Below are positions 1 to 31,872 of a stretch of 52,144 nucleotides of DNA, piece by piece. How positions within the stretch are numbered: the first letter of the stretch is position 1; each line of letters opens with the position of its first letter. The stretch comes from Bacilli bacterium. Its GTDB lineage: Bacteria; Bacillota_I; Bacilli_A; RF39; UBA660. The stretch spans positions 1-52,144 of the forward strand of contig JAGAYJ010000001.1 in NCBI GenBank assembly GCA_017940575.1, written 5' to 3'. A model generated the notes under the pieces. The model was given only the letters and a program-made list of their open reading frames with translations. It ran no database searches and was not told the origin of the DNA. The position numbers and the translations under genes are program-made.

Positions 1-1
1 G

Positions 2-352
2 GAAGAAAGAGATAACCTTTTAGAATTATCAAAAGAAAATAAGGTGGTGAATAAATATATGGAAGAGCTAGATAGAATTAATAAAGATCCAATATTTAGA
101 TGGTCTATATCAGAAGAAGATGATCAAAGAATGATTAAAAATGCTATAAAAAGAGAAGCAAGAGAAGAAGGCATTAAAGAAGGCATTAAAGAAGGCATTG
201 AAAAAGGCATTAAAGAAGGACTTGAAAAAGGCGTAAGAGAAGGTAAGATTGAAATAGCCAAAAATTTGATTAATATGCAAATGGATTATGAAGATATATC
301 GAAAGCAACTGGCTTATCAGTTGAGGAATTAAAACAAATTAAAGAACAATAA
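2..352 (+). CDS. C-terminal part of an Rpn/YhgA-like (PD-(D/E)XK 'putative transposase') protein, truncated by the left window edge
   Basis: The frame is open from base 2 (EERDNLLELSKENKVVNKYM...). It has the typical tail: REAREEGIKEGIKEG repeats, then IEIAKNLINMQMDYEDISKATGLSVEELKQIK. The nuclease domain lies outside the window. Confidence 0.75.
   Translation, partial: EERDNLLELSKENKVVNKYMEELDRINKDPIFRWSISEEDDQRMIKNAIKREAREEGIKEGIKEGIEKGIKEGLEKGVREGKIEIAKNLINMQMDYEDISKATGLSVEELKQIKEQ
167..250 (+). repeat. Seven degenerate in-frame 12-bp tandem units (consensus GAAGGCATTAAA, encoding EGIK)
   Basis: Perfect units at 167-178 and 179-190; variant units continue to 250. Confidence 0.9.
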
Positions 353-401
353 TATGTTCTTTTTTTTATGCATAATCAAATATAATTAATTAGGTGATGT
401 T

Positions 402-1097
402 ATGTTTAAAAAAATAATTAAATATTTGTTTAAAGATTTTTATCTTTTTACAGCAGCTTATTCAAATAATATTTTTCCAGAACCTTTATCAGATGTTGAA
501 GAAAAAGAAACTTTAGAAAAGTATTTTAATGGAGATAAAATGGCTCGTGATATTTTAATAGAACATAATTTAAGATTAGTTGCTCATATAGTAAAAAAAT
601 ATGACTATAAAAAAGAAGATATGGATGATTTAATTAGTATTGGTACAATTGGACTTATAAAAGGTGTTGATTCATACTCAAAAGAAAAAGGAACAAAGCT
701 TACCACTTACTGTGCTAGATGTATAGAAAATGAAATTTTAATGTACTTTAGAGGTGATAAAAAGAATAATAAAAATATAAGTCTAAATGAAAAGATAGGA
801 TTTGATAAAGATGGAAATGAAATAACTTTTCTAGATATTTTAAAAACACCGAATCATGACTATATAATGGATATACATCAAAATAACTTAGAGGAAAATT
901 TAAAACATTATTTTAAAGTATTAACTGATAGAGAAAAAGAAATTTTAATTAAAAGATATGGACTTAATAATACTAAAGAAACTACACAAAAAGAACTTGC
1001 TAAAAACTTAGGTATATCAAGAAGCTATGTATCTAGAATAGAAAAACGTGCTTTAACTAAAATACTTAAAGAGTTTATAAGAAATAAGGATAACTAG
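402..1097 (+). CDS. sigK: Sporulation sigma factor pro-SigK, uninterrupted
   Basis: Pro-sequence then NNIFPEPLS; LIEHNLRLVAHIVKKY; DLISIGTIGLIKG; TYCARCIENEILMY; TQKELAKNLGISRSYVSRIEKRAL. Confidence 0.9.
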   Translation: MFKKIIKYLFKDFYLFTAAYSNNIFPEPLSDVEEKETLEKYFNGDKMARDILIEHNLRLVAHIVKKYDYKKEDMDDLISIGTIGLIKGVDSYSKEKGTKLTTYCARCIENEILMYFRGDKKNNKNISLNEKIGFDKDGNEITFLDILKTPNHDYIMDIHQNNLEENLKHYFKVLTDREKEILIKRYGLNNTKETTQKELAKNLGISRSYVSRIEKRALTKILKEFIRNKDN

Positions 1098-1145
1098 ATT
1101 TTGTTTTTTTAAAAAATTATGGTAAAATAACCTTAAGGTGATACT

Positions 1146-1577
1146 ATGAGAAAAAAAATAGTCTCAATTATACTATTACTTTTATGGGCAAGCTTAATTT
1201 TTTATCTATCGGATCAACCAAGAGTCGTTTCTAATAAAATGTCTAGTGACATAATAAAACATACTTTATTTGTAAATGATGTAGTTTTAAAGATAATACA
1301 TAATCCTTTAAGAGAAGCAATGCATGCATTTGAATATTTTATATTTGGTCTTTTACTTATAAATGTATTAAAGCAATTTAATATAAAACGAATAATTACA
1401 TTTACAATAATTATAGCAATTATATTTATGGTTAGTGACGAGATTCATCAAATATATGTTCCTGGTAGAGCATTTGAAATTTTAGATTTATTTTTAGATT
1501 TTGTGGGTATTATAATAGCTTGTTTGTTACACTTTAATTACTTAAGTTGCATGCAATTAAATAAAAGTATTATATAA
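1146..1577 (+). CDS. VanZ family membrane protein
   Basis: IFYLSDQP...S..MS; AHAFEY-like segment (MHAFEYFIFG); SDEIHQIYVPGRAFEILDLFLD. Confidence 0.85.
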   Translation: MRKKIVSIILLLLWASLIFYLSDQPRVVSNKMSSDIIKHTLFVNDVVLKIIHNPLREAMHAFEYFIFGLLLINVLKQFNIKRIITFTIIIAIIFMVSDEIHQIYVPGRAFEILDLFLDFVGIIIACLLHFNYLSCMQLNKSII

Positions 1578-1583
1578 TTAACT

Positions 1584-1625
1584 ATAAATAAGGAAACTAT
1601 TATATAAATAAGTTTCCTTATTTAT
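1584..1625 (+). terminator. Perfect 15-bp inverted repeat after the VanZ gene
   Basis: ATAAATAAGGAAACT (1584-1598) / AGTTTCCTTATTTAT (1611-1625). Confidence 0.7.
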
Positions 1626-1685
1626 TTTATAAAAATAATATATACAAATTAAAAAAAATAACGTATAATTAAATTAGTTGTGAAT

Positions 1686-1727
1686 AAAAAGAGGGGAGGC
1701 TATAATTAATATTATAGGCCTCTTTTT
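1686..1727 (+). promoter_or_regulatory. Terminator-like hairpin in the 5' leader of the AAA operon
   Basis: AAAAAGAGG..GGCTATAAT / ATTATAGGCCTCTTTTT with a T-tract. It lies between a TATAAT (~1665) and the SD GGAGG (1745-1749). Confidence 0.45.
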
Positions 1728-1755
1728 GCTTTTTTACTTAAAATGGAGGAATAAA

Positions 1756-3198
1756 ATGGAACAAGAAGTAAGTAAATATATAGCAGTTAGATATTTAAAA
1801 ACAAGATTAAGTGATGATACATATGTTTTTTCTTTTAAAGATATTATTAGCTATGATACAGTTAATGAAGATAAGTCAATTAAATATATGAAAAAAGGCA
1901 AAGAAAAGACTTTATATAGTATAATGGATCCTGATTTTTTAATAAGTGATGAAAAGTATGGATTTGCCGAGACTTATGATTTAAGTTCTTTAATTAAATT
2001 TTATAATAATAGTAACTTAAATCTAATTGTAGAACTATTAAAACGAGCATATGATAATATAATTAGAATATGTATATTAGATGAGAAGAATTGCTATGTT
2101 AAAATGGCAAGCATAAAAAAGGAAAATTTAATTAATTATAAAGTAAGTAAAGAAAAATTTGCTGACTTTGTTGTAAATATAAATTCATTTGGTAATACTT
2201 TTATGTTTGATAAGAATGCTATAGATCTTCTAGTTGAGAATCTTGAAAATAAAGATTATGATGCCGCACTTGCAGAATTAAGATGTGTTAAAAAGATTCT
2301 GGAGGAATATGCTAAAACTCATAAAACAGAAAATTTATTAGTTAATATAGAACAAAAAATAGAACCTGATATAATTGATCATGAAAAAGAAATAGATTCA
2401 TTGATTGGCCTTGATAATGTTAAAAATTTTGTTCAAAAATTGAAAAATTATTTAATTTATTTAAATAAAGTAGAAGATAATGTTAAATTAGATAATCCTA
2501 ATTTAAGTATGGTTTTCTCTGGAAATCCAGGAACAGGTAAAACTACAATAGCAAGAATTATAGCAAGTATACTATATAATTTAGGTTATGTAGAAAATCC
2601 TGATTTTATAGAAACAACTGCACAAGATTTTATAGCAGGTTATGTTGGTCAAACGGCAATTAAAACAAAAGAGTTGATTGAAAGTCATAAAGGATCTGTT
2701 ATTTTTATAGATGAAGCATATGTACTTGCAAGTGAAGCACAGCACTTTGCGCAAGAAGCAATTGTTGAAATTATAAAAGAAATGGAAAGTCGTAAAACTG
2801 TCTTTATCTTCGCAGGATATAAAGATGAAATGAAAAAATTTATCGACATGAATCCAGGTATTAAATCAAGAGTTGGTAATTTTGTTGAATTCAAGGATTA
2901 TACTGAAGAAGAATTATTAGAAATATTTATGAAGAAACTAAAATCTTGTAAATTAAAAATTGGGCAAACTACGAAAGAACAAATAATGGAAATTATAAAA
3001 AAACATAAGAATACCGAGAGATTTGGCAATGGACGTTTTATTGATCAGTTATTCGATAAATTAATTATTAATCATGCAAATAATAGTTATCAATCTAATT
3101 CAATAAACAGTTTAACAACAATTCATCTAAAAGATTTAGAAGGTTTAGATGAGGAATTGAAAGATGAAAGTATAGTTAAAACAATAGGCTTTAAATAA
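1756..3198 (+). CDS. AAA+ ATPase of the SpoVK/CbbX/EccA-like clade with an unknown ~200-aa N-terminal region
   Basis: Walker A GNPGTGKT; AGYVGQTAIKT; Walker B IFIDEAY; FIFAGY; NPGIKSR; FGNGRF; C-terminal IGFK. ATG 1756 follows the SD GGAGG and is preferred over the TTG at 1726. Confidence 0.85.
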   Translation: MEQEVSKYIAVRYLKTRLSDDTYVFSFKDIISYDTVNEDKSIKYMKKGKEKTLYSIMDPDFLISDEKYGFAETYDLSSLIKFYNNSNLNLIVELLKRAYDNIIRICILDEKNCYVKMASIKKENLINYKVSKEKFADFVVNINSFGNTFMFDKNAIDLLVENLENKDYDAALAELRCVKKILEEYAKTHKTENLLVNIEQKIEPDIIDHEKEIDSLIGLDNVKNFVQKLKNYLIYLNKVEDNVKLDNPNLSMVFSGNPGTGKTTIARIIASILYNLGYVENPDFIETTAQDFIAGYVGQTAIKTKELIESHKGSVIFIDEAYVLASEAQHFAQEAIVEIIKEMESRKTVFIFAGYKDEMKKFIDMNPGIKSRVGNFVEFKDYTEEELLEIFMKKLKSCKLKIGQTTKEQIMEIIKKHKNTERFGNGRFIDQLFDKLIINHANNSYQSNSINSLTTIHLKDLEGLDEELKDESIVKTIGFK

Positions 3199-3211
3199 GG
3201 AGGAATGTAAA

Positions 3212-5113
3212 ATGAGTAAAATGTATGCAATGCTTATGGAAAGAGTTGCTATTGATGATATGTTTTATATTTTTAAGCCAATTGATAAAATAGAAGGATA
3301 TCTACAAAAATATAATGAATTTAGCATGTTTCAAACAGGAGAAGCAAACGCTTATTACTTGGCAGATGATATTATTTCTCTTGATTCTGATTATCGTTTT
3401 GTAGCGCATAATATAATAAGTGAAGAAGATTTATTGGAATTATATGATACAAATGATATAGAAGAAGCATTAGCTAACTATGTAAATGATAATTTTGAAA
3501 AAACATTTTTTGGACTAACAACATTTGAAGATGGTAAAATAGCAATGAGCGAAATAGAAACTGATGATTTAATATCTAAAATATATAATAGATGTGAAAC
3601 TTCATATAATGATGTTGCCTATACATTTAATAGTGATAATTTAAATATAGAAGTAACTTTAGAAGATGATATATTTGATGATTATATTTCAAGTAAATAT
3701 TTAAAAGAATCATTTGATAATGCGTGTACTTCAATTAAAATAGTAAATGATTATACAGAAATGATTGAATTGTTAGAAGATATTACTGACTTTTATAATT
3801 CTCTTTCAACTCGTTTTAAAAAAGAAGAACCAAAAGAATTAAGCTCTTTCTTTATGAAAATTGCGGAATTATTTAAAAAACTTTCTTTATTTAAAACAAC
3901 AGATGAAATAAAAGAAAAATTCTTTTCAGTATTTGATGAATTAAATGAAGCGAATAATATAGTTGTTAGAAAATACGAAGAATTTGAAAACAAAAATGCC
4001 GCACTTACTGTTGTTGAAAAAGAAGAAAAGTCTAAAATGATTAATGTAAAAGAAATGAAAGAAAAATTTGATCAAGTTATAATTGGCCAAGAAGATGCTA
4101 AGAAAGCAGTTATTAAGGCTATATTTAAAAATAGAGTTAGAGATAATATTGAATCATCAAATAAAAATAATTGCTTATTAATAGGCCCAACAGGATGTGG
4201 TAAAACACTTATCGCAGAGGTGGCAGCCAAATATTTTAATTTACCTTTAGATATAGTAGATTCTCCTCAAATAACTGCTGCAGGATATATTGGAGCGAAT
4301 ATAACTGATTGCTTAGAACACTTACTTTCACAAACAAAAGGAAATTTAAAAGAAGCAGAAAAAGGAATAATCGTATTTGATGAACTTGATAAAAAAGGAC
4401 AATTAGGAAGTGGCGTTAAAAGTGATGTTAATAAAGGTGATGTATTAAATGAAATGCTTAAATTTATAGAAGGTTCTAAATATGATGTTACTTATAATAA
4501 TAAAAATTATGTTTTTGATACATCTAATTTATCAATAATTGGAATGGGCTCTTTTGCGGCAGCTCAAGAAGATATGAATCAAAATGAAATAGGATTTAAC
4601 AAAAAACAAAATGAAATAGAAGAAGACATAAAATATAAAAAAATGACTACAGATGACTTTTCTAAAAAAGCTAATATACCTCGTGAATTAGTTGGTAGAT
4701 TTACAATAAAAAAACAATTATCTGGTCATACAATTGAATCACTTAGAAGAATTCTAACAGAATCTAAGTCAAGTGCTTTATTAAGTGAAAAAGATATTTT
4801 GAATTGCCTTGATATTGAGCTTTCATGGACAGATGATTTTTTAGATGAAGTTGCAAAAAAAGCAGTTAAACTTAAAACGGGAGCACGAAGCCTTAAATCA
4901 ACTATTGAAGAAGCAATAGAAGAAGCTGAATGGGAAGTGTTATGTAATTTAGATACATATAAAGGAATTATTTTAACAGATAAATCTGTAAATGATAACA
5001 CTGATATTTTATTAATTGATGTCAATGATAATAAACATAATTTAAAAGATATAATTGCTTCTAAAGATAAAACAAGTCTTTCTGTTCAAAAAGAATTAGT
5101 TTATAAAAAATGA
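3212..5113 (+). CDS. Divergent ClpX-like AAA+ ATPase with a long (~270 aa) N-terminal extension and no Zn finger
   Basis: VIIGQEDAKKAV; LLIGPTGCGKTLIAE; AAGYIG; AEKGIIVFDELDK; IGF loop (NEIGFN); ELVGRF; TGARSL. Confidence 0.85.
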   Translation: MSKMYAMLMERVAIDDMFYIFKPIDKIEGYLQKYNEFSMFQTGEANAYYLADDIISLDSDYRFVAHNIISEEDLLELYDTNDIEEALANYVNDNFEKTFFGLTTFEDGKIAMSEIETDDLISKIYNRCETSYNDVAYTFNSDNLNIEVTLEDDIFDDYISSKYLKESFDNACTSIKIVNDYTEMIELLEDITDFYNSLSTRFKKEEPKELSSFFMKIAELFKKLSLFKTTDEIKEKFFSVFDELNEANNIVVRKYEEFENKNAALTVVEKEEKSKMINVKEMKEKFDQVIIGQEDAKKAVIKAIFKNRVRDNIESSNKNNCLLIGPTGCGKTLIAEVAAKYFNLPLDIVDSPQITAAGYIGANITDCLEHLLSQTKGNLKEAEKGIIVFDELDKKGQLGSGVKSDVNKGDVLNEMLKFIEGSKYDVTYNNKNYVFDTSNLSIIGMGSFAAAQEDMNQNEIGFNKKQNEIEEDIKYKKMTTDDFSKKANIPRELVGRFTIKKQLSGHTIESLRRILTESKSSALLSEKDILNCLDIELSWTDDFLDEVAKKAVKLKTGARSLKSTIEEAIEEAEWEVLCNLDTYKGIILTDKSVNDNTDILLIDVNDNKHNLKDIIASKDKTSLSVQKELVYKK

Positions 5114-5140: not shown

Positions 5141-5190
5141 ATTTTTTGTGGTAAAATAAATATGTAAATTTTAATGAATTAGGTGATATT

Positions 5191-6474
5191 ATGATACAAA
5201 AGCCAAAAGGAACATATGACGTTTTTGGAGAATATGGTAAAAAAGTTAAAGAATTAGAAAAAATAATGAATGCTTTAATGGAAAAATATAACTATGAATA
5301 TATTAGAACTCCACACTTTGAAGCAAGTGAATTATTCCACAGAGGTGTAGGCGAAACTACTGATATCGTATCTAAAGAAACATATGATTTTATAGATCGA
5401 GGAGATAGAAACATGACACTACGCCCTGAAGGAACTGCTGGTGTTGTTAGAAGTTATATTGAAAACAAAATGTATGGAGAAGCTATAAACCCTAGAAAAC
5501 TATGGTATTATGGACCAATGTATAGATACGAACGTCCTCAATCAGGAAGATTTAGAGAATTCTATCAATTTGGAGTTGAAGTGTTTGGAACAAATAATCC
5601 TATGATGGATGCTGAGGTTATATCTATTCCAGTTAATTTTTATAAATTACTTGGACTAAAAGGTATAAAAGTTAATATTAATACATTAGGCGATAAAGAA
5701 TCACGTGATGCATATAGAAATGCACTTCTAGAATACTTTAAACCACATTTAGATACATTATGTGAAGATTGCAAAGAAAGATATTCTAAAAATCCACTTC
5801 GTATATTAGATTGTAAAGTAGATGCTAATAAAGATATTATGAAAAATGCTCCAAAAATAATAGATTATTTAAATGATGAATCAAAGAGTCACTTTGAAAG
5901 CGTTAAAAAATATTTGAGTGTTTTAGGTATTGAATATGTAGTTAATCCTAAATTAGTTAGAGGATTAGATTATTATACACATACTGTATTTGAAGTAGAA
6001 GCTAATGTTGAAGGATTTGGTAGTCAAAATGTATTATGCGGTGGTGGAAGATACGATCATTTAGTTGAAATGGTTGGAGGTCCATCCACTCCAGGTGTTG
6101 GATTTGCCATGGGACTAGAGAGACTTATGACAGCCTTAGACTATGAAAATATTAACTTAGTTGAACATGATCATGTTGATTGTTATATTGTTCCAATGAA
6201 TACTAATGATTATAGTTTTGCGCTTATGCAAGATTTAAGACTTAATGGTTTTAGTGTAGATATGGATTATATGAATAGAAAAGTTTCTAATAACTTTAAA
6301 CAAGCAGATAGATTAAAGGCTAGATTTATAATTATAATTGGTGAAGATGAAGTAAATAGTAATATCTTAACTGTTAAAGATAATCATACAAAAGAAGAGT
6401 TTAAAGTTAATACTTTAGATATAATTGATTTTTTAGATGAAAAATTAGAAGATTGTGGTTGTGAAGAAGAGTAA
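5191..6474 (+). CDS. hisS: Histidine--tRNA ligase
   Basis: PKGTYD; RPEGTAGVVR; YERPQSGRFREFYQFGVE; LVRGLDYYT; GGGRYD. Confidence 0.97.
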   Translation: MIQKPKGTYDVFGEYGKKVKELEKIMNALMEKYNYEYIRTPHFEASELFHRGVGETTDIVSKETYDFIDRGDRNMTLRPEGTAGVVRSYIENKMYGEAINPRKLWYYGPMYRYERPQSGRFREFYQFGVEVFGTNNPMMDAEVISIPVNFYKLLGLKGIKVNINTLGDKESRDAYRNALLEYFKPHLDTLCEDCKERYSKNPLRILDCKVDANKDIMKNAPKIIDYLNDESKSHFESVKKYLSVLGIEYVVNPKLVRGLDYYTHTVFEVEANVEGFGSQNVLCGGGRYDHLVEMVGGPSTPGVGFAMGLERLMTALDYENINLVEHDHVDCYIVPMNTNDYSFALMQDLRLNGFSVDMDYMNRKVSNNFKQADRLKARFIIIIGEDEVNSNILTVKDNHTKEEFKVNTLDIIDFLDEKLEDCGCEEE

Positions 6475-26173: not shown

Positions 26174-26689
26174 ATGGAAACTATTGTATTAAATGATAAT
26201 AACTTATTAGATAAAGATATTGATATATTTGAAACTAAATCACGTGCTATCATTAGTGTTAATAATAAAATACTTGTTTGTGACTATAATGATGTTTGTA
26301 TACTTCCTGGAGGAAAGATAGAAAACGGTGAAGATGAAGTTACTGGATTAAGACGTGAACTTAAAGAAGAAATTGGTATTGATTATACTAATAAAGAATT
26401 AAAGCCTTTATTTAAACTTATATATTATCAATCCAATTATCCAACTAGAGATGGAAAGATTAAAAACAGATGTATAAAAACATCATATTATATAACGAAA
26501 TATAAAGGTATTGATTTAAATAATATAAATAGATCAGAAGAAGAATTAAAAAGTAATTTTGAATTAAAGCTAATGAGTATCGATGAATTATATGATAGAA
26601 TGAACTTAAAAAATAATAATCCAAGAAATAAATTTTTTAACAAAGAAATGCATACTCTTTTAAAAAAATACGAGAATAAGAGGCCATAA
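26174..26689 (+). CDS. NUDIX hydrolase
   Basis: LPGGKIENGEDEVTGLRRELKEEIG Nudix box. Confidence 0.9.
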   Translation: METIVLNDNNLLDKDIDIFETKSRAIISVNNKILVCDYNDVCILPGGKIENGEDEVTGLRRELKEEIGIDYTNKELKPLFKLIYYQSNYPTRDGKIKNRCIKTSYYITKYKGIDLNNINRSEEELKSNFELKLMSIDELYDRMNLKNNNPRNKFFNKEMHTLLKKYENKRP

Positions 26690-26806
26690 TGGCCTTTTTA
26701 TGTTATAATTTTTTAAAGTGCAACTAAATATATACAAAATTCAACTTAAAATTGGTAGAACGCAACTAGTTTATTTTATAAGATTAGAGTGTAAAGGAGA
26801 GAATTT

Positions 26807-28099
26807 ATGAATTTAAAAGATAATTTAAAAAGAATAAGAAAAGAAAATAATTTATCACAAGAACAATTAGCTGATAAATTAAATGTATCAAGACAGTCTG
26901 TGTCTAAATGGGAGTCAGGAGTATCATATCCTGAGATGGATAAAATGATTCTGATATGTAAGATGTTTGATTTAAGTATGGATGAGTTATTAAATCAAAA
27001 TGTTAAAGCAGTTAATGATGAGAAAAAGAATAAAGTGGAAATTAATAAATATATAGATAGTTTTTTAAACTTTATATCTAAATCATATGACATGTTAAAT
27101 AGTATGACAAGAACTCAAATCATAAGATGTATATTTGAACAATTATTTTTTATGCTTGTATTTTATTGCATATCTATGCTTGTAGTTAGAGTAGTTGATG
27201 GGTTATTTGGAAATATTTTAGATGTATTTAATTATTACGATATTTTAAAGAAAGTGTTTGATTTAATAATTGTATTTTTGAAAACAGGTTTTTTAATATT
27301 AGATTTTATATTGGTAGTATATATTTATAAAATTAGATATTTAGACTATTATTTAAAAGATGATAAAAAAGAAGAAATAAAAAAAGAAGAAAATAATAAA
27401 CCTGAGAAAATAGAGAGAGTAATTATAAGAGATCCAAAGCATTCAGAATATCGTTTTATATCTGGATTATTAAGATTATTAACTATATTTACTAAATGTT
27501 TTATCACCTTAATATTATTATTTGCAGTATTTATATTACTTACATTATTAGTATTTTTAGTTTTATCATTTATGTTTGTTAAAACAGGTTTATTATTTGT
27601 TGGTGGATTTATTGTATTACTTTCATCAATTATAGTTTTGTTAGTTTTTATGAGTTCATTATATTGTTTTATAATTAATAGAAAATATAACTATAGATTT
27701 ATGGAAAGAACACTACTTATATCAATAATAACACTCGGACTTGGTCTTGGAATATCATTTTTAAGTATCACTAATTTTGAATTTAAAAATGATAAAGTAG
27801 AAGAAGAAATTGTTATACCAATGAACGAGAATTTAAATTATAGTTGGAATGTAAGCTATGTGGAAGAAGATAGAGCAGATTTAAGAATTGTAGCAACACA
27901 CTCAAAATATTATAAATTAAAATATGATAGTGATATGAATGTTATATATAATGATTATATAAATGAAGATAGATATGATGAGTTTAGGAATATTATAAAA
28001 GACATTAATAATAAAAAAATAATTGACTATAGGACTGATTATATAACTATTTATACTTCAAAAGATAATATTGATAAGCTTATGAATTATAATCAGTAA
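26807..28099 (+). CDS. XRE-family HTH regulator fused to a multi-TM domain
   Basis: RKENNLSQEQLADKLNVSRQSVSKWESG, then several TM helices. Confidence 0.85.
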   Translation: MNLKDNLKRIRKENNLSQEQLADKLNVSRQSVSKWESGVSYPEMDKMILICKMFDLSMDELLNQNVKAVNDEKKNKVEINKYIDSFLNFISKSYDMLNSMTRTQIIRCIFEQLFFMLVFYCISMLVVRVVDGLFGNILDVFNYYDILKKVFDLIIVFLKTGFLILDFILVVYIYKIRYLDYYLKDDKKEEIKKEENNKPEKIERVIIRDPKHSEYRFISGLLRLLTIFTKCFITLILLFAVFILLTLLVFLVLSFMFVKTGLLFVGGFIVLLSSIIVLLVFMSSLYCFIINRKYNYRFMERTLLISIITLGLGLGISFLSITNFEFKNDKVEEEIVIPMNENLNYSWNVSYVEEDRADLRIVATHSKYYKLKYDSDMNVIYNDYINEDRYDEFRNIIKDINNKKIIDYRTDYITIYTSKDNIDKLMNYNQ

Positions 28100-28223
28100 G
28101 ATGATTTTGAAAAAAAGAAGGAATTGAATAATTTCTTCTTTTTATATATAGTTCACAGATATATTGACAAATTGCAAATAATTAAAAGTATGTTATAATA
28201 CATTTTAGAAGGAGGTAATATGT

Positions 28224-28613
28224 ATGAAAAAGAAAGAACCGATGCAAGTACTTAAAGGATTTAGTTGGGTATATATGATATCTGTTATATTAGTTGTTAT
28301 AATTGCTATTTTTATTCCAACAATTCCTGAAATACCAGAGGAATTTAAAAAAGTTGTAGCAACTGATGTTGATCCATTATTAGCTATCGAGATAACTTTA
28401 ATTGTTAGAGCTTTAATTGATTTATGGTATTTTTATTTAATTAGAAGATATACAAGTGGGAAAAGTAATGGCACATTAATTATGATATTATTAATCATTG
28501 GTGTAATTGGTAATTTAATCAGTATTATTATGTTTAATGAAAAAGCTACTTTAAGTTTTATAATTGATGCTGTAGTATTATTTTTCTTTTATTTATCAAA
28601 AAAAAGTAAATAG
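28224..28613 (+). CDS. Hypothetical membrane protein
   Basis: About 4 hydrophobic segments; SD GGAGG. Confidence 0.75.
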   Translation: MKKKEPMQVLKGFSWVYMISVILVVIIAIFIPTIPEIPEEFKKVVATDVDPLLAIEITLIVRALIDLWYFYLIRRYTSGKSNGTLIMILLIIGVIGNLISIIMFNEKATLSFIIDAVVLFFFYLSKKSK

Positions 28614-28652
28614 TTATTATGTAGGAAAATGAATTAGAATGGATGTGATTTT

Positions 28653-30056
28653 ATGAAAAAATTATTTAACATAATGCTTGCATTATTAATGCTAATGCCA
28701 TTTATGCACATTAATGCATCAACTAAAACAGATGCTTTAATTGAAATGCTAAAAGAACAATCAAAATCATATGATGGAACTGTTACATATGAAAATGATG
28801 AGATTCAAATTGAATGGTTTATTCCAAATTCAAAACTTGAACAAGTTTCATTTTTATATAATGAAAATATAATAGAGTATAATCCAGGAGAAATAACAAG
28901 CTATGAAGAAGCTAGCGAGTCTATGAGCCATACTATTTATGCAACAGAATTAATAAGAGCTGCTTTAATAGTTAATGGATATAGTGATGAAGAAGTCAAA
29001 GAATTTTTTAATAGCGAAGATAAAGAATTTGATTATGACATAAATGGTATTGAATTTAAATCTTTAGGAGAGTCAAAACCATATACAAGTTCAGATGGTA
29101 CTAGTACTTTAACAGTAGCGCCTATTTCTATAAAAATAGATGTAGCCAAAGCTAATTTAAATAGTGCAACTGATCCTGCTTTTGTTACAAAATCAACTAC
29201 TGTTGAAGATGTGGTAAATTATTTAAATAATAATGAGGATTTTGCATCTACAAAAGATAATGGTAAAACTATTTTTGAAAATGAAGTTAGTATTGATGAT
29301 GATACTCTTACAATTGATCACACTTTTTACTGGGAAGATTATTATAATGTTTCATTTTATGTAGAAGATGATGTAATTTCATACGAAGATGAAATAATAG
29401 ATTATTTTGATGCAGAGAGAGCTTTAAGTCATCAAATGTATATGCGTCAAATAATAGTTAATGCACTTAAAATAAATGGTTATACTACTGAGCAAATTAA
29501 TAACTTTTTTTCATCAGAAACAAATGAGTTTAATTATGATGTTAATGGTATTGAAATAAAGGAAATAGGTGAAGAAAAAGAATATTATAGTTCTGATGGA
29601 GAGGAATCAATATTAATAATACCTATGTCATATAAAATTGACTTAAAACGTGCTAATTTAAATAAGTATAAAGTTCTTGAAGGTGAAAACCAAAAAATAA
29701 GTAATGATAAAGAATTAACATTTAGATTAAATATTGATTATGCAGTGTTTAAAGAAGAAGGAAAAGTATATGTAGATGGTAAATTAGTTGATCCATCAAA
29801 TTATACTTCAAAAGAAGGAAGTACAATTATTACTTTTAATAGTAATTATGTAAAAACTTTATCTAATAAAGAACATACTTTAAAAGTTGCCGTTAATGAT
29901 GGTGAAGTATTAACTCACTTTACTATCGATGATGCTAATACAATTAAAAATCCTAATACTGGTGATAATATATTAGTTTATATCATATTATTTGGATTAA
30001 GTATAGTTGGATTTGTATTATCAAAAATATATTTTAATAAAAAAAGATTTAACTAG
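28653..30056 (+). CDS. Secreted cell-surface protein with an internally duplicated domain and an NPNTG-TM-basic tail anchor
   Basis: Signal peptide; two copies of SH..Y....I..AL..NGY..E....FF.SE..EF.YD.NGIE.K..GE.K.Y.SSDG; C-terminal GSTIITF..Y...L...EHTL (Ig-like); NPNTGD, TM, KKRFN. Confidence 0.8.
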   Translation: MKKLFNIMLALLMLMPFMHINASTKTDALIEMLKEQSKSYDGTVTYENDEIQIEWFIPNSKLEQVSFLYNENIIEYNPGEITSYEEASESMSHTIYATELIRAALIVNGYSDEEVKEFFNSEDKEFDYDINGIEFKSLGESKPYTSSDGTSTLTVAPISIKIDVAKANLNSATDPAFVTKSTTVEDVVNYLNNNEDFASTKDNGKTIFENEVSIDDDTLTIDHTFYWEDYYNVSFYVEDDVISYEDEIIDYFDAERALSHQMYMRQIIVNALKINGYTTEQINNFFSSETNEFNYDVNGIEIKEIGEEKEYYSSDGEESILIIPMSYKIDLKRANLNKYKVLEGENQKISNDKELTFRLNIDYAVFKEEGKVYVDGKLVDPSNYTSKEGSTIITFNSNYVKTLSNKEHTLKVAVNDGEVLTHFTIDDANTIKNPNTGDNILVYIILFGLSIVGFVLSKIYFNKKRFN

Positions 30057-30090
30057 ATTTTCTAGTTTTTTCTTTGTTTAAACAATATAT

Positions 30091-30284
30091 GACATTTTGC
30101 TTATTCAAATAGTTTAATTTTTCATACTATAAAATAGGTAAGGAGGAATTAAAATGTTTGGAAATTGTTGTAATAGACAAAACATGTTTGATATGAATAT
30201 GAATCAACCTATGATGGAAGGTCAAGTAATTGAACCAACTATAAATAAATGTATTGAAAAAGAATTCTATCATGAGGTACCACA
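30091..30284 (+). repeat. Direct repeat copy 1 (upstream region plus 5' end of the cotD-like gene); copy 2 is at 31463-31656
   Basis: 194-bp alignment at a constant offset of 1372, about 9 substitutions; homology ends at ...GTACCACA. Confidence 0.95.
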
Positions 30285-30291
30285 AGAGTGA
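30154..30291 (+). pseudogene. Truncated cotD-like copy (45 aa)
   Basis: MFGNCCNRQNMFDMNMNQPMMEGQVIEPTINKCIEKEFYHEVP then QE*; it diverges from the full copy exactly at the repeat end. Confidence 0.85.
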
Positions 30292-30476
30292 TAATTTATG
30301 ATAGACCAAACATTGTAGATAAATAAGTATAAAAATAAAGCATCTATTATCAAATTCCTAAATTTAAATATACAAAAGTTACATAGCTTTAAGTTTATTA
30401 TTTAATAATTTACATTTATTTACATTGTGTATTTTGAGTATAAAAAAATATATGCTATAATGAATATGGTGATAAT

Positions 30477-31031
30477 ATGAATAATGATGATAATATAATT
30501 GTTTCATTACCTGAACATTATACTCAAATGGGGTATGATGATGCTATAAAAGGTGAAGAAAAAAAGAACAATCTTGATGGTATGAGTGAGTATTTCTATG
30601 ATACGGGATATTATTTAGGAATGAATGATAAAACATTACATTCAAATACATCAAGTGAGCAAACCTTTGGTCCTGTTGATGAATCAAAAGATAAATATAA
30701 TAATGAAGATAAACAAACAAGCAATGCACAAATAAATAATGATAATTTTGGAACAAAACTATATGAAGAAGGAAAGAAAGCAGCAATTGAAGGATATGAT
30801 ATTAATGATTTTATAAAAGGATTTGAAGAAGGAACTAGAATGAGAGAATCATTATATCAAGTGGAATCATATAAAGAGCCTAATAAGCCTAATAATTATA
30901 GTGGTGTCTCAGATGGTGAAGGTGGAATTATTTCACTTGAGCAATTTGAAGAATATGGTATAGATCCAAATTCTCCAAATGCAAGAGAGCAATTAGAAAC
31001 TGCAGTACAAAACAAATATAAATCAAGATAA
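30477..31031 (+). CDS. Hypothetical acidic N/D/E-rich protein (element cargo)
   Basis: Own TTGAGT..TATAAT promoter, SD GGTGA, and a downstream hairpin. Confidence 0.75.
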   Translation: MNNDDNIIVSLPEHYTQMGYDDAIKGEEKKNNLDGMSEYFYDTGYYLGMNDKTLHSNTSSEQTFGPVDESKDKYNNEDKQTSNAQINNDNFGTKLYEEGKKAAIEGYDINDFIKGFEEGTRMRESLYQVESYKEPNKPNNYSGVSDGEGGIISLEQFEEYGIDPNSPNAREQLETAVQNKYKSR

Positions 31032-31184
31032 ATAAAAATTTATCTTTTTTTAGGTTAAAATATTTATAGGTGATTTTATGAGGGGTGAAGTTTATAGTTA
31101 AAACTAATTTAAGTGCTATAAGCACAAGAATTAGTATTAATAAAAATTTAGTTATTCGTGTAAATTTTATTAAGGAGTATGCTC

Positions 31185-31289
31185 ATGAATAACTATAAAA
31201 TTAATATTAAATATGGAACTTCTGATTTAAATAATATTTTAATCAAAGTTCTAAATAGTGAATTAAAAAATCATAAGAATGATTTGTAA
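31185..31289 (+). CDS. Small ORF (34 aa, MNNYKINIKYGTSDLNNILIKVLNSELKNHKNDL) upstream of the recombinase remnant
   Basis: SD AAGGAG 7 nt upstream; not in the supplied ORF track. Confidence 0.5.
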   Translation: MNNYKINIKYGTSDLNNILIKVLNSELKNHKNDL

Positions 31290-31354
31290 AAATCAAAAAT
31301 GTGAGTTATCATCATCATATACTTATTTATCTACTAAAGATAAGGAGGATAGAA

Positions 31355-31438
31355 GTGGTAGATAATAGTAATTATAATGTTGGTATTTATATTAGATTAT
31401 CTAGAGAAGATGATGATCAAAATAGAGCCATTCAATAA
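31355..31438 (+). pseudogene. N-terminal remnant of a large serine recombinase
   Basis: SD AAGGAGG (31342-31348) and GTG; MVDNSNYNVGIYIRLSREDDDQNRAIQ* contains the catalytic Y-x-R-x-S motif. Confidence 0.75.
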
Positions 31439-31462
31439 TGAAACATTTTTTTTATAATATAA

Positions 31463-31656
31463 GACATTTAACTTATTCAAATAGTTTAATTTTTCATACT
31501 ATAAAATAGGTAAGGAGGAATTAAAATGTTTGGAAATTGTTGTAATAGACAAAACATGTTTGATATGAATATGAATCAACCTATGATGGAAGGACAAATA
31601 GTTGAACCAACTATAAATAAATGTATTGAAAAGGAGTTTTATCATGAAGTACCACA
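31463..31656 (+). repeat. Direct repeat copy 2 (upstream region plus 5' end of the intact cotD-like gene)
   Basis: See copy 1; includes a CATACTAT mother-cell-sigma-like -10 and the SD AAGGAGG. Confidence 0.95.
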
Positions 31657-31786
31657 TGTTTGTCCAATACATACACATGTAATAAATAAACATATCTATA
31701 AACATACTTACACTCCACAATATACATGTAGTGAAGAATGTCAAAATATGAATATTGATTGTGGTAAATGTTCTAATTTTATGTAA
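31526..31786 (+). CDS. CotD-like spore coat protein
   Basis: EPTINKCIEKEFYHEVPHVCPIHTHVINKHIYKHTYTPQYTCSEE; Cys/His/Met-rich. Confidence 0.7.
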   Translation: MFGNCCNRQNMFDMNMNQPMMEGQIVEPTINKCIEKEFYHEVPHVCPIHTHVINKHIYKHTYTPQYTCSEECQNMNIDCGKCSNFM

Positions 31787-31872
31787 GAAAGATTTATTCT
31801 TTCTTTTATTTTGACAAAAATAAAAAAAAGTATTATTATAGTACCCGCTAAAAGAAAAAAGAGGGATGAACC

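Follow-up and report, generated by a model that had tools for sequence, protein, structure and literature searches.

A probable half-element fossil of a cotD-splitting serine-recombinase family beside an uninterrupted cotD-like gene in an uncultured gut bacterium of the Bacilli

Skin and SPβ, two intervening elements of sporulation genes, are defective or active prophages of 48–134 kb. In Bacillus subtilis, they occupy the mother-cell genes sigK (skin; SpoIVCA) and spsM (SPβ; SprA/SprB), and both follow the same logic, in which a large-serine-recombinase (LSR) element splits the gene and recombination of attL with attR rebuilds it (PMC4191935, PMC5499854). Another such system, gin, interrupts gerE in Bacillus cereus ATCC 10987 and has the recombinase GirC and the directionality factor GirX (PMC5595907). 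The locus described here lies in a 52,144-nt stretch of DNA (hereafter the window) from an uncultured Bacilli bacterium (contig JAGAYJ010000001.1 of assembly GCA_017940575.1; genome G000), in which the 5' end of a spore-coat gene, cotD, is present twice with remains of a serine-recombinase element in between. Sequence comparison suggests that what lies in the window is the left half of a small cotD-intervening LSR element, no longer mobile and fused to a chromosomal cotD allele that is itself ordinary and uninterrupted. The family of this element would work like skin, SPβ, vfbin, vrin and especially gin, as judged by analogy (PMC5595907, PMC4191935, PMC5499854). The papers returned by a literature search on sporulation intervening elements contained no mention of cotD, and the cotD-targeting recombinase family is apparently unpublished. 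Coordinates given without a contig name are positions in the whole window, and the features they delimit lie on the forward strand.

The duplicated arrangement agrees with the initial annotation of this locus, which described a cotD-like promoter and first 43 codons occurring twice, 1372 bp apart, with about nine substitutions. The direct repeat (30074–30284 and 31446–31656) covers 211 nt at 93% identity. In a four-way alignment, true homology extends over 30080–30284 and 31452–31656 with 14 differences, and exactly nine of these fall within 30091–30284. The left copy comprises a promoter and leader (30080–30153), delimited by alignment with the right copy and with the cotD upstream regions of eight same-genus genomes, and a truncated 5' cotD (30154–30291), in which the 43 common codons are followed by Q-E-stop from element DNA; as annotated, it ends two codons past the junction. 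The right copy has its own promoter and leader (31455–31525; aligned with the left copy and same-genus upstream regions) and is full length, its open reading frame (ORF) at 31526–31786 encoding an intact cotD-like protein of 86 amino acids (aa). Its assignment to CotD is borderline, with 22.2 bits against a cut-off of 22 for the Pfam family Spore-coat_CotD. A terminator hairpin, GAAAGATTTATTCTTTC with a T-run, was read directly from the sequence at 31787–31815. Between the two copies lie a cargo ORF, a small ORF and the N-terminus of a serine recombinase oriented toward the right copy, as first described. No other cotD matches besides these two are present in the whole G000 genome.

The left promoter has the -10 element CATACTATA, which matches CATAnnnTA, a motif that we take to fit the mother-cell sigma-factor consensus. 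Across the genus, CATAnnnTA and an ATTC(A) block about 20 nt upstream are kept in all ten aligned cotD promoters (window 31490–31525; L062–L067), and these conserved motifs presumably resemble mother-cell promoters of the sigma-E/sigma-K type. Mother-cell expression of cotD is itself assumed here from Bacillus subtilis.

The left breakpoint is a genuine attL of an LSR element. This site (30262–30306) consists of a B arm (CTATCAT, 30267–30273), a central CA (30283–30284) and a P' arm, AGAGTGATAATTTATGATAGAC (30285–30306), and the same junction recurs in intact elements. The crossover is the CA at 30283–30284, equivalent to 31655–31656 in the right copy. A search of 185,579 species genomes for exact matches to the 23-nt attL sequence gave 58 stretches, at least 55 of which follow a cotD 5' half, and the genomes holding it are all uncultured gut metagenome-assembled genomes (MAGs) labelled Bacilli, Tenericutes or Mollicutes. 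The identical sequence is also the attL of intact elements at seven fetched loci, other genera included. A serine-recombinase element thus integrated in the coat gene at the breakpoint initially proposed, with the left copy as its attL side. A plain tandem duplication with no link to a recombinase was discarded, the left breakpoint being a conserved attL, and intact versions of the element use this same site rather than a different one.

The opposite arm is supplied by two sister species of the same genus, G003 and G008. In both, a 3' cotD fragment beginning at codon 44 adjoins syntenic YkuD, YebC and GlyRS genes, with GTCTAYCATAAATTATCAAGRACA just before it. The outer 18 nt of this arm (GTCTAYCATAAATTATCA) are the reverse complement of window positions 30289–30306, so the two sequences are P and P' of a single attachment site. 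The inverted repeat formed by CTATCAT (30267–30273) and ATGATAG (30298–30304), recorded earlier, is real and represents an outer motif common to the B and P' arms, its distance from the core being 9 nt on the B side and 13 nt on the P' side. This difference is similar to the half-site offset between attB and attP of large serine integrases. A 16-nt palindrome recorded earlier in the empty site was considered as the centre of recombination; its seven of eight pairs stand, but the crossover CA is offset by about 5 nt to the right of its dyad (GGTACC). The dyad of the reconstructed attP (GTCTACCATAAATTATCAAGAACAAGAGTGATAATTTATGATAGAC) is centred on CA, and the palindrome was rejected for that role. 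The right cotD contains an intact, unoccupied attB (31633–31678, centred on CA 31655–31656), identical in form to the attB reconstructed from four genera and to the empty sites of six same-genus genomes.

LSR elements split cotD at codon 43/44 in at least 55 related species, all small-genome, spore-forming gut Bacilli. Complete elements, found in other genera of the family, measure 3.9–7.5 kb and are inserted at the CA core between codons 43 and 44. Their layout runs from ffh through 5' cotD (ending in ...HEVP), attL, cargo, a small ORF, the LSR and zero to two further genes to attR and 3' cotD, which opens with HVCPIH.... The attL of these elements reads GTACCACA|AGWGTGATAATTTATGATAGAC and the attR GTCTATCAAAAAAGGGCAAGGACA|TGTTTGTCC. 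The LSRs of intact relatives are 516–536 aa long, those of the complete elements 520–532 aa, and they carry the domains Resolvase, Recombinase and Zn_ribbon_recom. A recombinase 72–92% identical is present wherever downstream sequence suffices, and 3' cotD comes after it where the stretch continues. Wherever the sequence of a related locus extends far enough beyond attL, no copy of the cotD 5' end was found; the LSR is followed by attR and a bare 3' cotD. Empty sites, in the form of uninterrupted cotD genes, are present in six same-genus genomes. In-silico joining of the flanks at the shared CA gave full CotD-like ORFs in four genera, as with skin-type elements. Intact elements simply split cotD, and precise excision would restore the gene; by analogy with skin, SPβ and gin, this excision is expected in the mother cell during sporulation. 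All ORFs of at least 90 aa in seven annotated elements are codirectional with cotD, and the cargo is defence-like (RhuM, NERD, Fic, PemK and an ORF6N protein of the candidate system PDC-S05), with no phage genes. A natural attP also exists: at L058/L121 (G093:C3) and L092, two related elements lie head to tail in one cotD, with an attP-like joint of P and P' arms (GTCTATCAAAAAAGGGCAAGGACAAGTGTGATAATTTATGACAGAC) between them.

The intact cotD elements resemble gin in several respects. Neither is a phage, both interrupt a sporulation gene of the mother cell that is very small, both place a serine recombinase beside a small ORF, and in both the attP has inverted-repeat arms around a central dinucleotide and precise excision would restore the gene. 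Gin, however, measures 28.6 kb and has three recombinases, whereas the cotD elements are far smaller and have one. Its target is gerE and its excision during sporulation has been demonstrated, while the cotD elements reside in uncultured gut Bacilli whose genomes measure about 1 Mb, and their excision is predicted. Compared with skin and SPβ, the cotD elements lack phage genes and carry defence-like cargo. The copy in the window differs further: it is a dead half without recombinase or attR, and its host gene is intact without excision. In this copy, the left cotD is cut at codon 43/44, as in intact elements, only 21 codons of the element's own LSR remain, and attL has no attR as its counterpart. 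The host is a spore former, with Spo0A_C and SpoIVA above cut-off (C16:113921-114628 and C38:5635-5946). The G000 assembly (1.02 Mb, 89% complete) is unusually small for an endospore former, yet it encodes Spo0A and SpoIVA; several public records of its relatives are labelled Tenericutes, Mollicutes or Mycoplasma.

The right junction is of a different nature. Homology to the closest intact LSR module, on metagenome contig L140 (91% at the DNA level), ends at 31421, within a 17-nt patch (31406–31422) where the L140 recombinase (GAAGATGATGATAAAAC) and the kinase 3' end of G008 (GAAGATGTTAAATAAAA) are identical at 12 of 17 positions. Between these two proxy parents, the microhomology amounts to seven contiguous matches (GAAGATG). 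Directly overlapping the patch, 31413–31454 is a relic of a histidine-kinase stop codon, terminator and T-tract, with a decayed hairpin; in G008, this kinase is located upstream of an uninterrupted cotD. A local alignment pairs the 42-nt relic over its whole length with the G008 kinase end at a score of 17, against a background of 7.9 ± 1.75 (z of about 5), and 0.04% of 20,000 control windows reach that score. Because the 42 nt before the right promoter are a kinase stop and terminator relic, the right copy derives from a chromosomal context and not from an attP arm. Since LSR homology ends at the joint, the event that brought the full cotD also removed the rest of the recombinase and attR. 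An alternative in which QNRAIQ*, after the DDD codons, was a decayed continuation of the recombinase has been replaced by the kinase-terminator reading. Taken as a whole, the locus is very likely a fossil with a non-site-specific right joint.

These observations do not support the central proposal of the initial annotation, a coat gene rebuilt by design from a promoter and 5' end brought in by the element, with the recombinase decaying later. The intact relatives have no cotD 5' copy and the right copy sits in a chromosomal context; the recombinase was truncated at the joint itself, where homology stops at 31421, rather than decaying after integration. The replacement segment expected of a self-restoring element is absent from the other copies, and its far boundary would be the joint between recombinase codon 21/22 and the kinase relic, so that only the core side fits. 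The further suggestion that excision is now unnecessary was correct and can be extended, as excision is neither needed nor possible with a complete right cotD, no attR and no LSR. In the whole G000 genome (89% complete), neither a P arm nor attR was detected and a single P' arm was found, and the family's LSR is limited to the 21-codon stump. An intact recombinase of the family was also absent from ten same-genus genomes, whose best other LSRs are at most 38% identical. With attR and an LSR of the family lacking in G000, the fossil is immobile. Under the fossil reading, cotD is expressed from its own promoter without excision, one cargo gene is stranded in the chromosome and an intact attB is available.

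What remains of the element begins with the attL and includes an intact cargo ORF of 184 aa (30477–31031). This protein has no match in Pfam, PADLOC or NCBIfam, and among 5.8 billion proteins it has no homologue other than itself; it is present on eight contigs read. The cargo is followed by a remnant of the recombination module (31068–31421), which comprises a conserved upstream region, the small ORF and the recombinase start and is 91% identical to the intact module of L140. The small ORF now encodes 36 aa (31179–31289), shortened by a 2-nt deletion from the 57–60 aa of intact elements. In the intact elements examined, it lies directly before or overlaps the recombinase start (L140 2039–2221; L055 about 5189–5360) and has a cysteine-containing stretch, such as ICRNKKCEVPSSC in L055. 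This ORF is a candidate directionality factor. The LSR stump (31355–31417; VVDNSNYNVGIYIRLSREDDD) retains 21 codons, including the catalytic-serine motif YIRLSRED, as seen in alignment with intact LSRs. Additionally, the remnant holds a perfect 17-nt inverted repeat, with a left arm at 30315–30331 (GTAGATAAATAAGTATA) and a right arm at 31318–31334 (TATACTTATTTATCTAC), the latter just upstream of the recombinase ribosome-binding site. The left arm lies about 32 nt inside attL, where intact elements have a similar motif at the same offset; L087, L096, L098, L101 and L088 keep AGAGAAAATAAGTACA and TGTACTTATTTATCTCT at these offsets. This repeat may be a regulatory site of the recombination module. 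A terminator-like hairpin that follows the left repeat arm in intact elements has been lost in the window.

A mirror image of this fossil is present in G003 and G008. Both contain a full cotD with its terminator, an ORF6N protein, an ORF of 262 aa (G003) or 274 aa (G008), attR, and a duplicated 3' cotD, and here the cotD terminator has been duplicated along with the gene end. The loci are L032 (G003:C37) 1–1186, L030 (G003:C93) 2804–3882, L033 (G008:C35) 5660–6032 and L031 (G008:C89) 537–2536; in G008, contigs C35 and C89 overlap, and about 100 nt separate the cotD terminator from the ORF6N gene. No recombinase was found in these mirror fossils. The P arm of their attR is a near-perfect inverse of P', and the ORF6N protein corresponds to the PADLOC candidate system PDC-S05. 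The likely parent kind is represented by L139, an intact element with a recombinase, ORF6N, NERD and attR. Half-elements beside a whole cotD have thus arisen at least twice in the genus.

The two 5' copies in the window are mosaic. The first 25 nt of the repeat contain six differences, and here the right copy equals G008 at 25 of 25 positions and the left copy equals G003 at three sites. The central 122 nt (30100–30221) show no difference between left and right and share six states that distinguish G000 from G003 and G008. In the last 71 nt there are seven or eight differences, roughly the between-species level. With moderate confidence, we attribute the locus to recombination of an occupied with an empty cotD allele. 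An occupied allele (129-aa and 467-aa genes, 5' cotD, attL, cargo, recombinase and beyond) would have recombined with an empty one (kinase, terminator, cotD), with homology settling one end and a microhomology-based illegitimate join the other, on the pattern of homology-facilitated illegitimate recombination. In this account, the 5' copies were diverged alleles at the outset, gene conversion later homogenised their central 122 nt, and the small ORF acquired its 2-nt deletion after the joining event. Diverged alleles would accord with the between-species level of difference at both repeat ends and with the complete match of the right end-piece to G008; the identical centre requires later gene conversion or some other history. 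The recurrence of half-elements beside whole cotD genes in G003 and G008 is consistent with such events. Several observations weigh against this origin. Shared single-nucleotide polymorphisms are split, the left copy agreeing with G003 and the right with G008 at five sites and the reverse at one, so that either copy may be the native one. The identical central segment with its common derived states would also be expected from a recent in-place duplication. An intact element with the 184-aa cargo was not found, tblastn against all fetched loci giving only a 49-aa C-terminal match. Furthermore, L140 and G008 are proxy parents, which makes the crossover point and the length of microhomology approximate; any DNA uptake or transfer in these uncultured organisms is putative; and sporulation-linked excision of the intact relatives is argued by analogy.

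A duplication in place would explain the identical centre directly. It would start with a microhomology-mediated tandem duplication, from the kinase terminator to recombinase codon 21, in a chromosome with a whole element; the recombinase would then excise the distal intact element copy, the upstream two-gene cassette would be swapped, and both repeat ends would receive foreign alleles. After the excision step, the order would be 5' cotD, attL, cargo, stump, terminator relic, promoter and full cotD. The 1372-bp repeat unit is exactly the segment from terminator relic to stump, the six shared G000-specific states in the identical centre are what a young duplication would show, and cassette swaps do occur, since three sister species each have their own upstream cassette. 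This route nonetheless takes four steps (duplication, excision and two allele imports) where allele recombination takes two, the left copy has no kinase-terminator relic upstream of it, and the divergence of both repeat ends is that expected between species; it is considered unlikely. Far less probable is the self-complementing element of the initial proposal, in which the attachment site of the 1372-bp unit includes the cotD promoter and 5' end and the recombinase decays afterwards. The topology suits it, with a truncated left copy, a full right copy and a breakpoint at the true core, and the G003/G008 mirror can be read as an element with a replacement 3' end. However, such an arm is absent from all related loci whose downstream sequence is long enough to show it, the real P arm has no relation to cotD, a kinase-terminator relic precedes the right promoter, the recombinase is cut at the joint, and the unit has been seen in a single genomic context. 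LSRs are also not known to act on an attL-type site together with attB. In our view, the model is refuted for the element family as a whole.

An ancestral nested arrangement is similarly remote, and slightly more so. Here, the common ancestor of G000, G003 and G008 would have had an integrated element whose recombinase gene was replaced by a whole cotD module, made up of kinase-terminator relic, promoter, gene and terminator. Homologous deletions between the cotD repeats would then have produced the fossils, a left half in G000 and a right half in G003 and G008. The fossils are indeed complementary, G000 keeping attL to codon 21 and the other two keeping the post-recombinase genes and attR, and a short stretch after the G008 cotD terminator (GTGACATTTTGGCA) weakly resembles the recombinase 3' end of L139 and L140. 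Against this, two illegitimate joints would be needed in one event, the 3' copies of G003 are nearly identical while the 5' copies of G000 differ by 7%, and the 13-nt resemblance is possibly due to chance. Finally, a misassembly of an occupied and an empty strain deserves mention since G000 is a MAG, assemblies are often broken or mis-joined at mobile elements, and contig G008:C89 has a foreign high-GC head. The same arrangement, with the same joints, is nevertheless present on seven contigs, one of them an ENA contig of another assembly with 99.94% identity over 8.3 kb, and a Logan contig from a different run spans 30231–31501 across attL, insert and joint. The stump region also shows decay, with the 2-nt deletion in the small ORF and the decayed terminator hairpin. 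With independent contigs carrying the same joints, a chimeric assembly was dismissed as almost certainly not the cause.

Homology-facilitated illegitimate recombination is known in transformable bacteria, for example Acinetobacter baylyi and Streptococcus pneumoniae. It has in common with the proposed origin by allele recombination a homology-anchored side, a microhomology join on the other side and foreign DNA left beside an unchanged recipient gene. It differs in that the process is here deduced from sequence alone, and sister chromosomes exchanging DNA would produce an identical scar. Target-restoring islands and phages, such as tRNA-gene islands, likewise leave a partial gene copy on one side and a full gene on the other, but in these the duplicated gene end belongs to attP and accompanies each copy of the element, whereas intact cotD elements carry no such end and the far boundary in the window is illegitimate and bears a chromosomal relic. 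The finding replaces the idea of a target-rebuilding mobile element by a documented scar and introduces no new integration strategy. The scar shows at base resolution how a skin-type element dies while its host regains an excision-independent gene and keeps a cargo gene, and the same outcome is seen in mirror image in sister species. It also serves as a warning that a self-complementing attachment site should not be deduced from a partial gene copy beside a full one. For a compact family that targets one cotD codon in dozens of gut species, natural attL, attR, attB and attP sequences are now available, together with an intact recombinase module 91% identical to the remnant.

The neighbourhood of cotD is variable in this part of the genus. 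Between the helix-turn-helix (HTH) gene and cotD, each of three sister species has a different two-gene cassette: genes of 129 and 467 aa, YibE/F-like genes of 359 and 248 aa, or a 360-aa gene with a histidine kinase. As the cassettes differ in each species, cotD has often served as a homology arm for cassette exchange. The block between ffh and cotD contains four or five genes in G000, G003 and G008; the six other members of the genus that have a cotD match either lack it or show one ORF there. In the three former genomes (window 26174–30056; L032 1255–5479; L033 963–5557), the block shares an HTH membrane gene and a NUDIX gene, the latter not seen in the G008 stretch examined. This block may be cargo stranded by earlier decay of elements. 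When its genes were sought as cargo of intact elements, the kinase alone matched, and in L093 and L034 it adjoins cotD as a chromosomal gene, a result that is relevant to the stranded-cargo reading without being decisive. A more general role, in which half-element fossils are a regular route for handing cargo from cotD-targeting elements to the chromosome, is doubtful. Each illegitimate exchange between occupied and empty alleles would then strand cargo beside cotD and regenerate a clean attB, and repeated rounds would build the variable ffh–cotD gene block of the clade. The contrast in block size, the presence of left-half and right-half fossils in the genus and the kinase directly upstream of the intact module in L140 fit this scenario.

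Some related loci have features of their own. On L140 (ERZ827488 NODE-171, 1–4580), the intact recombinase module, attR and 3' cotD are preceded by a 134-aa ORF and a histidine kinase of the G008 type. Neither attL nor 5' cotD was found in the 4.5 kb upstream, and the downstream flank is 94–96% identical to G004, where the site immediately following ffh is empty. This contig represents either a large element with kinase cargo or a third kind of fossil. In L031 (G008:C89), positions 1–536 are GC-richer and carry, on the other strand, a fragment of a different ORF6N-type protein in place of the cotD region supplied by C35. This head is probably a mis-join or a strain-variant path, in a MAG rated at 8% contamination. 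G008 also contains a second cotD 3' half, 53% identical, at L034 (G008:C19, 3977–4896), with an in-frame stop in the attR-side part, immediately ahead of the cotD residues; a second strain in the bin may be its source. This 3' half is preceded by a Fic-domain cargo gene and a canonical attR, a PemK toxin pair and a reverse-transcriptase-like ORF lie further upstream, and paralogues of the 360-aa gene and the kinase follow it.

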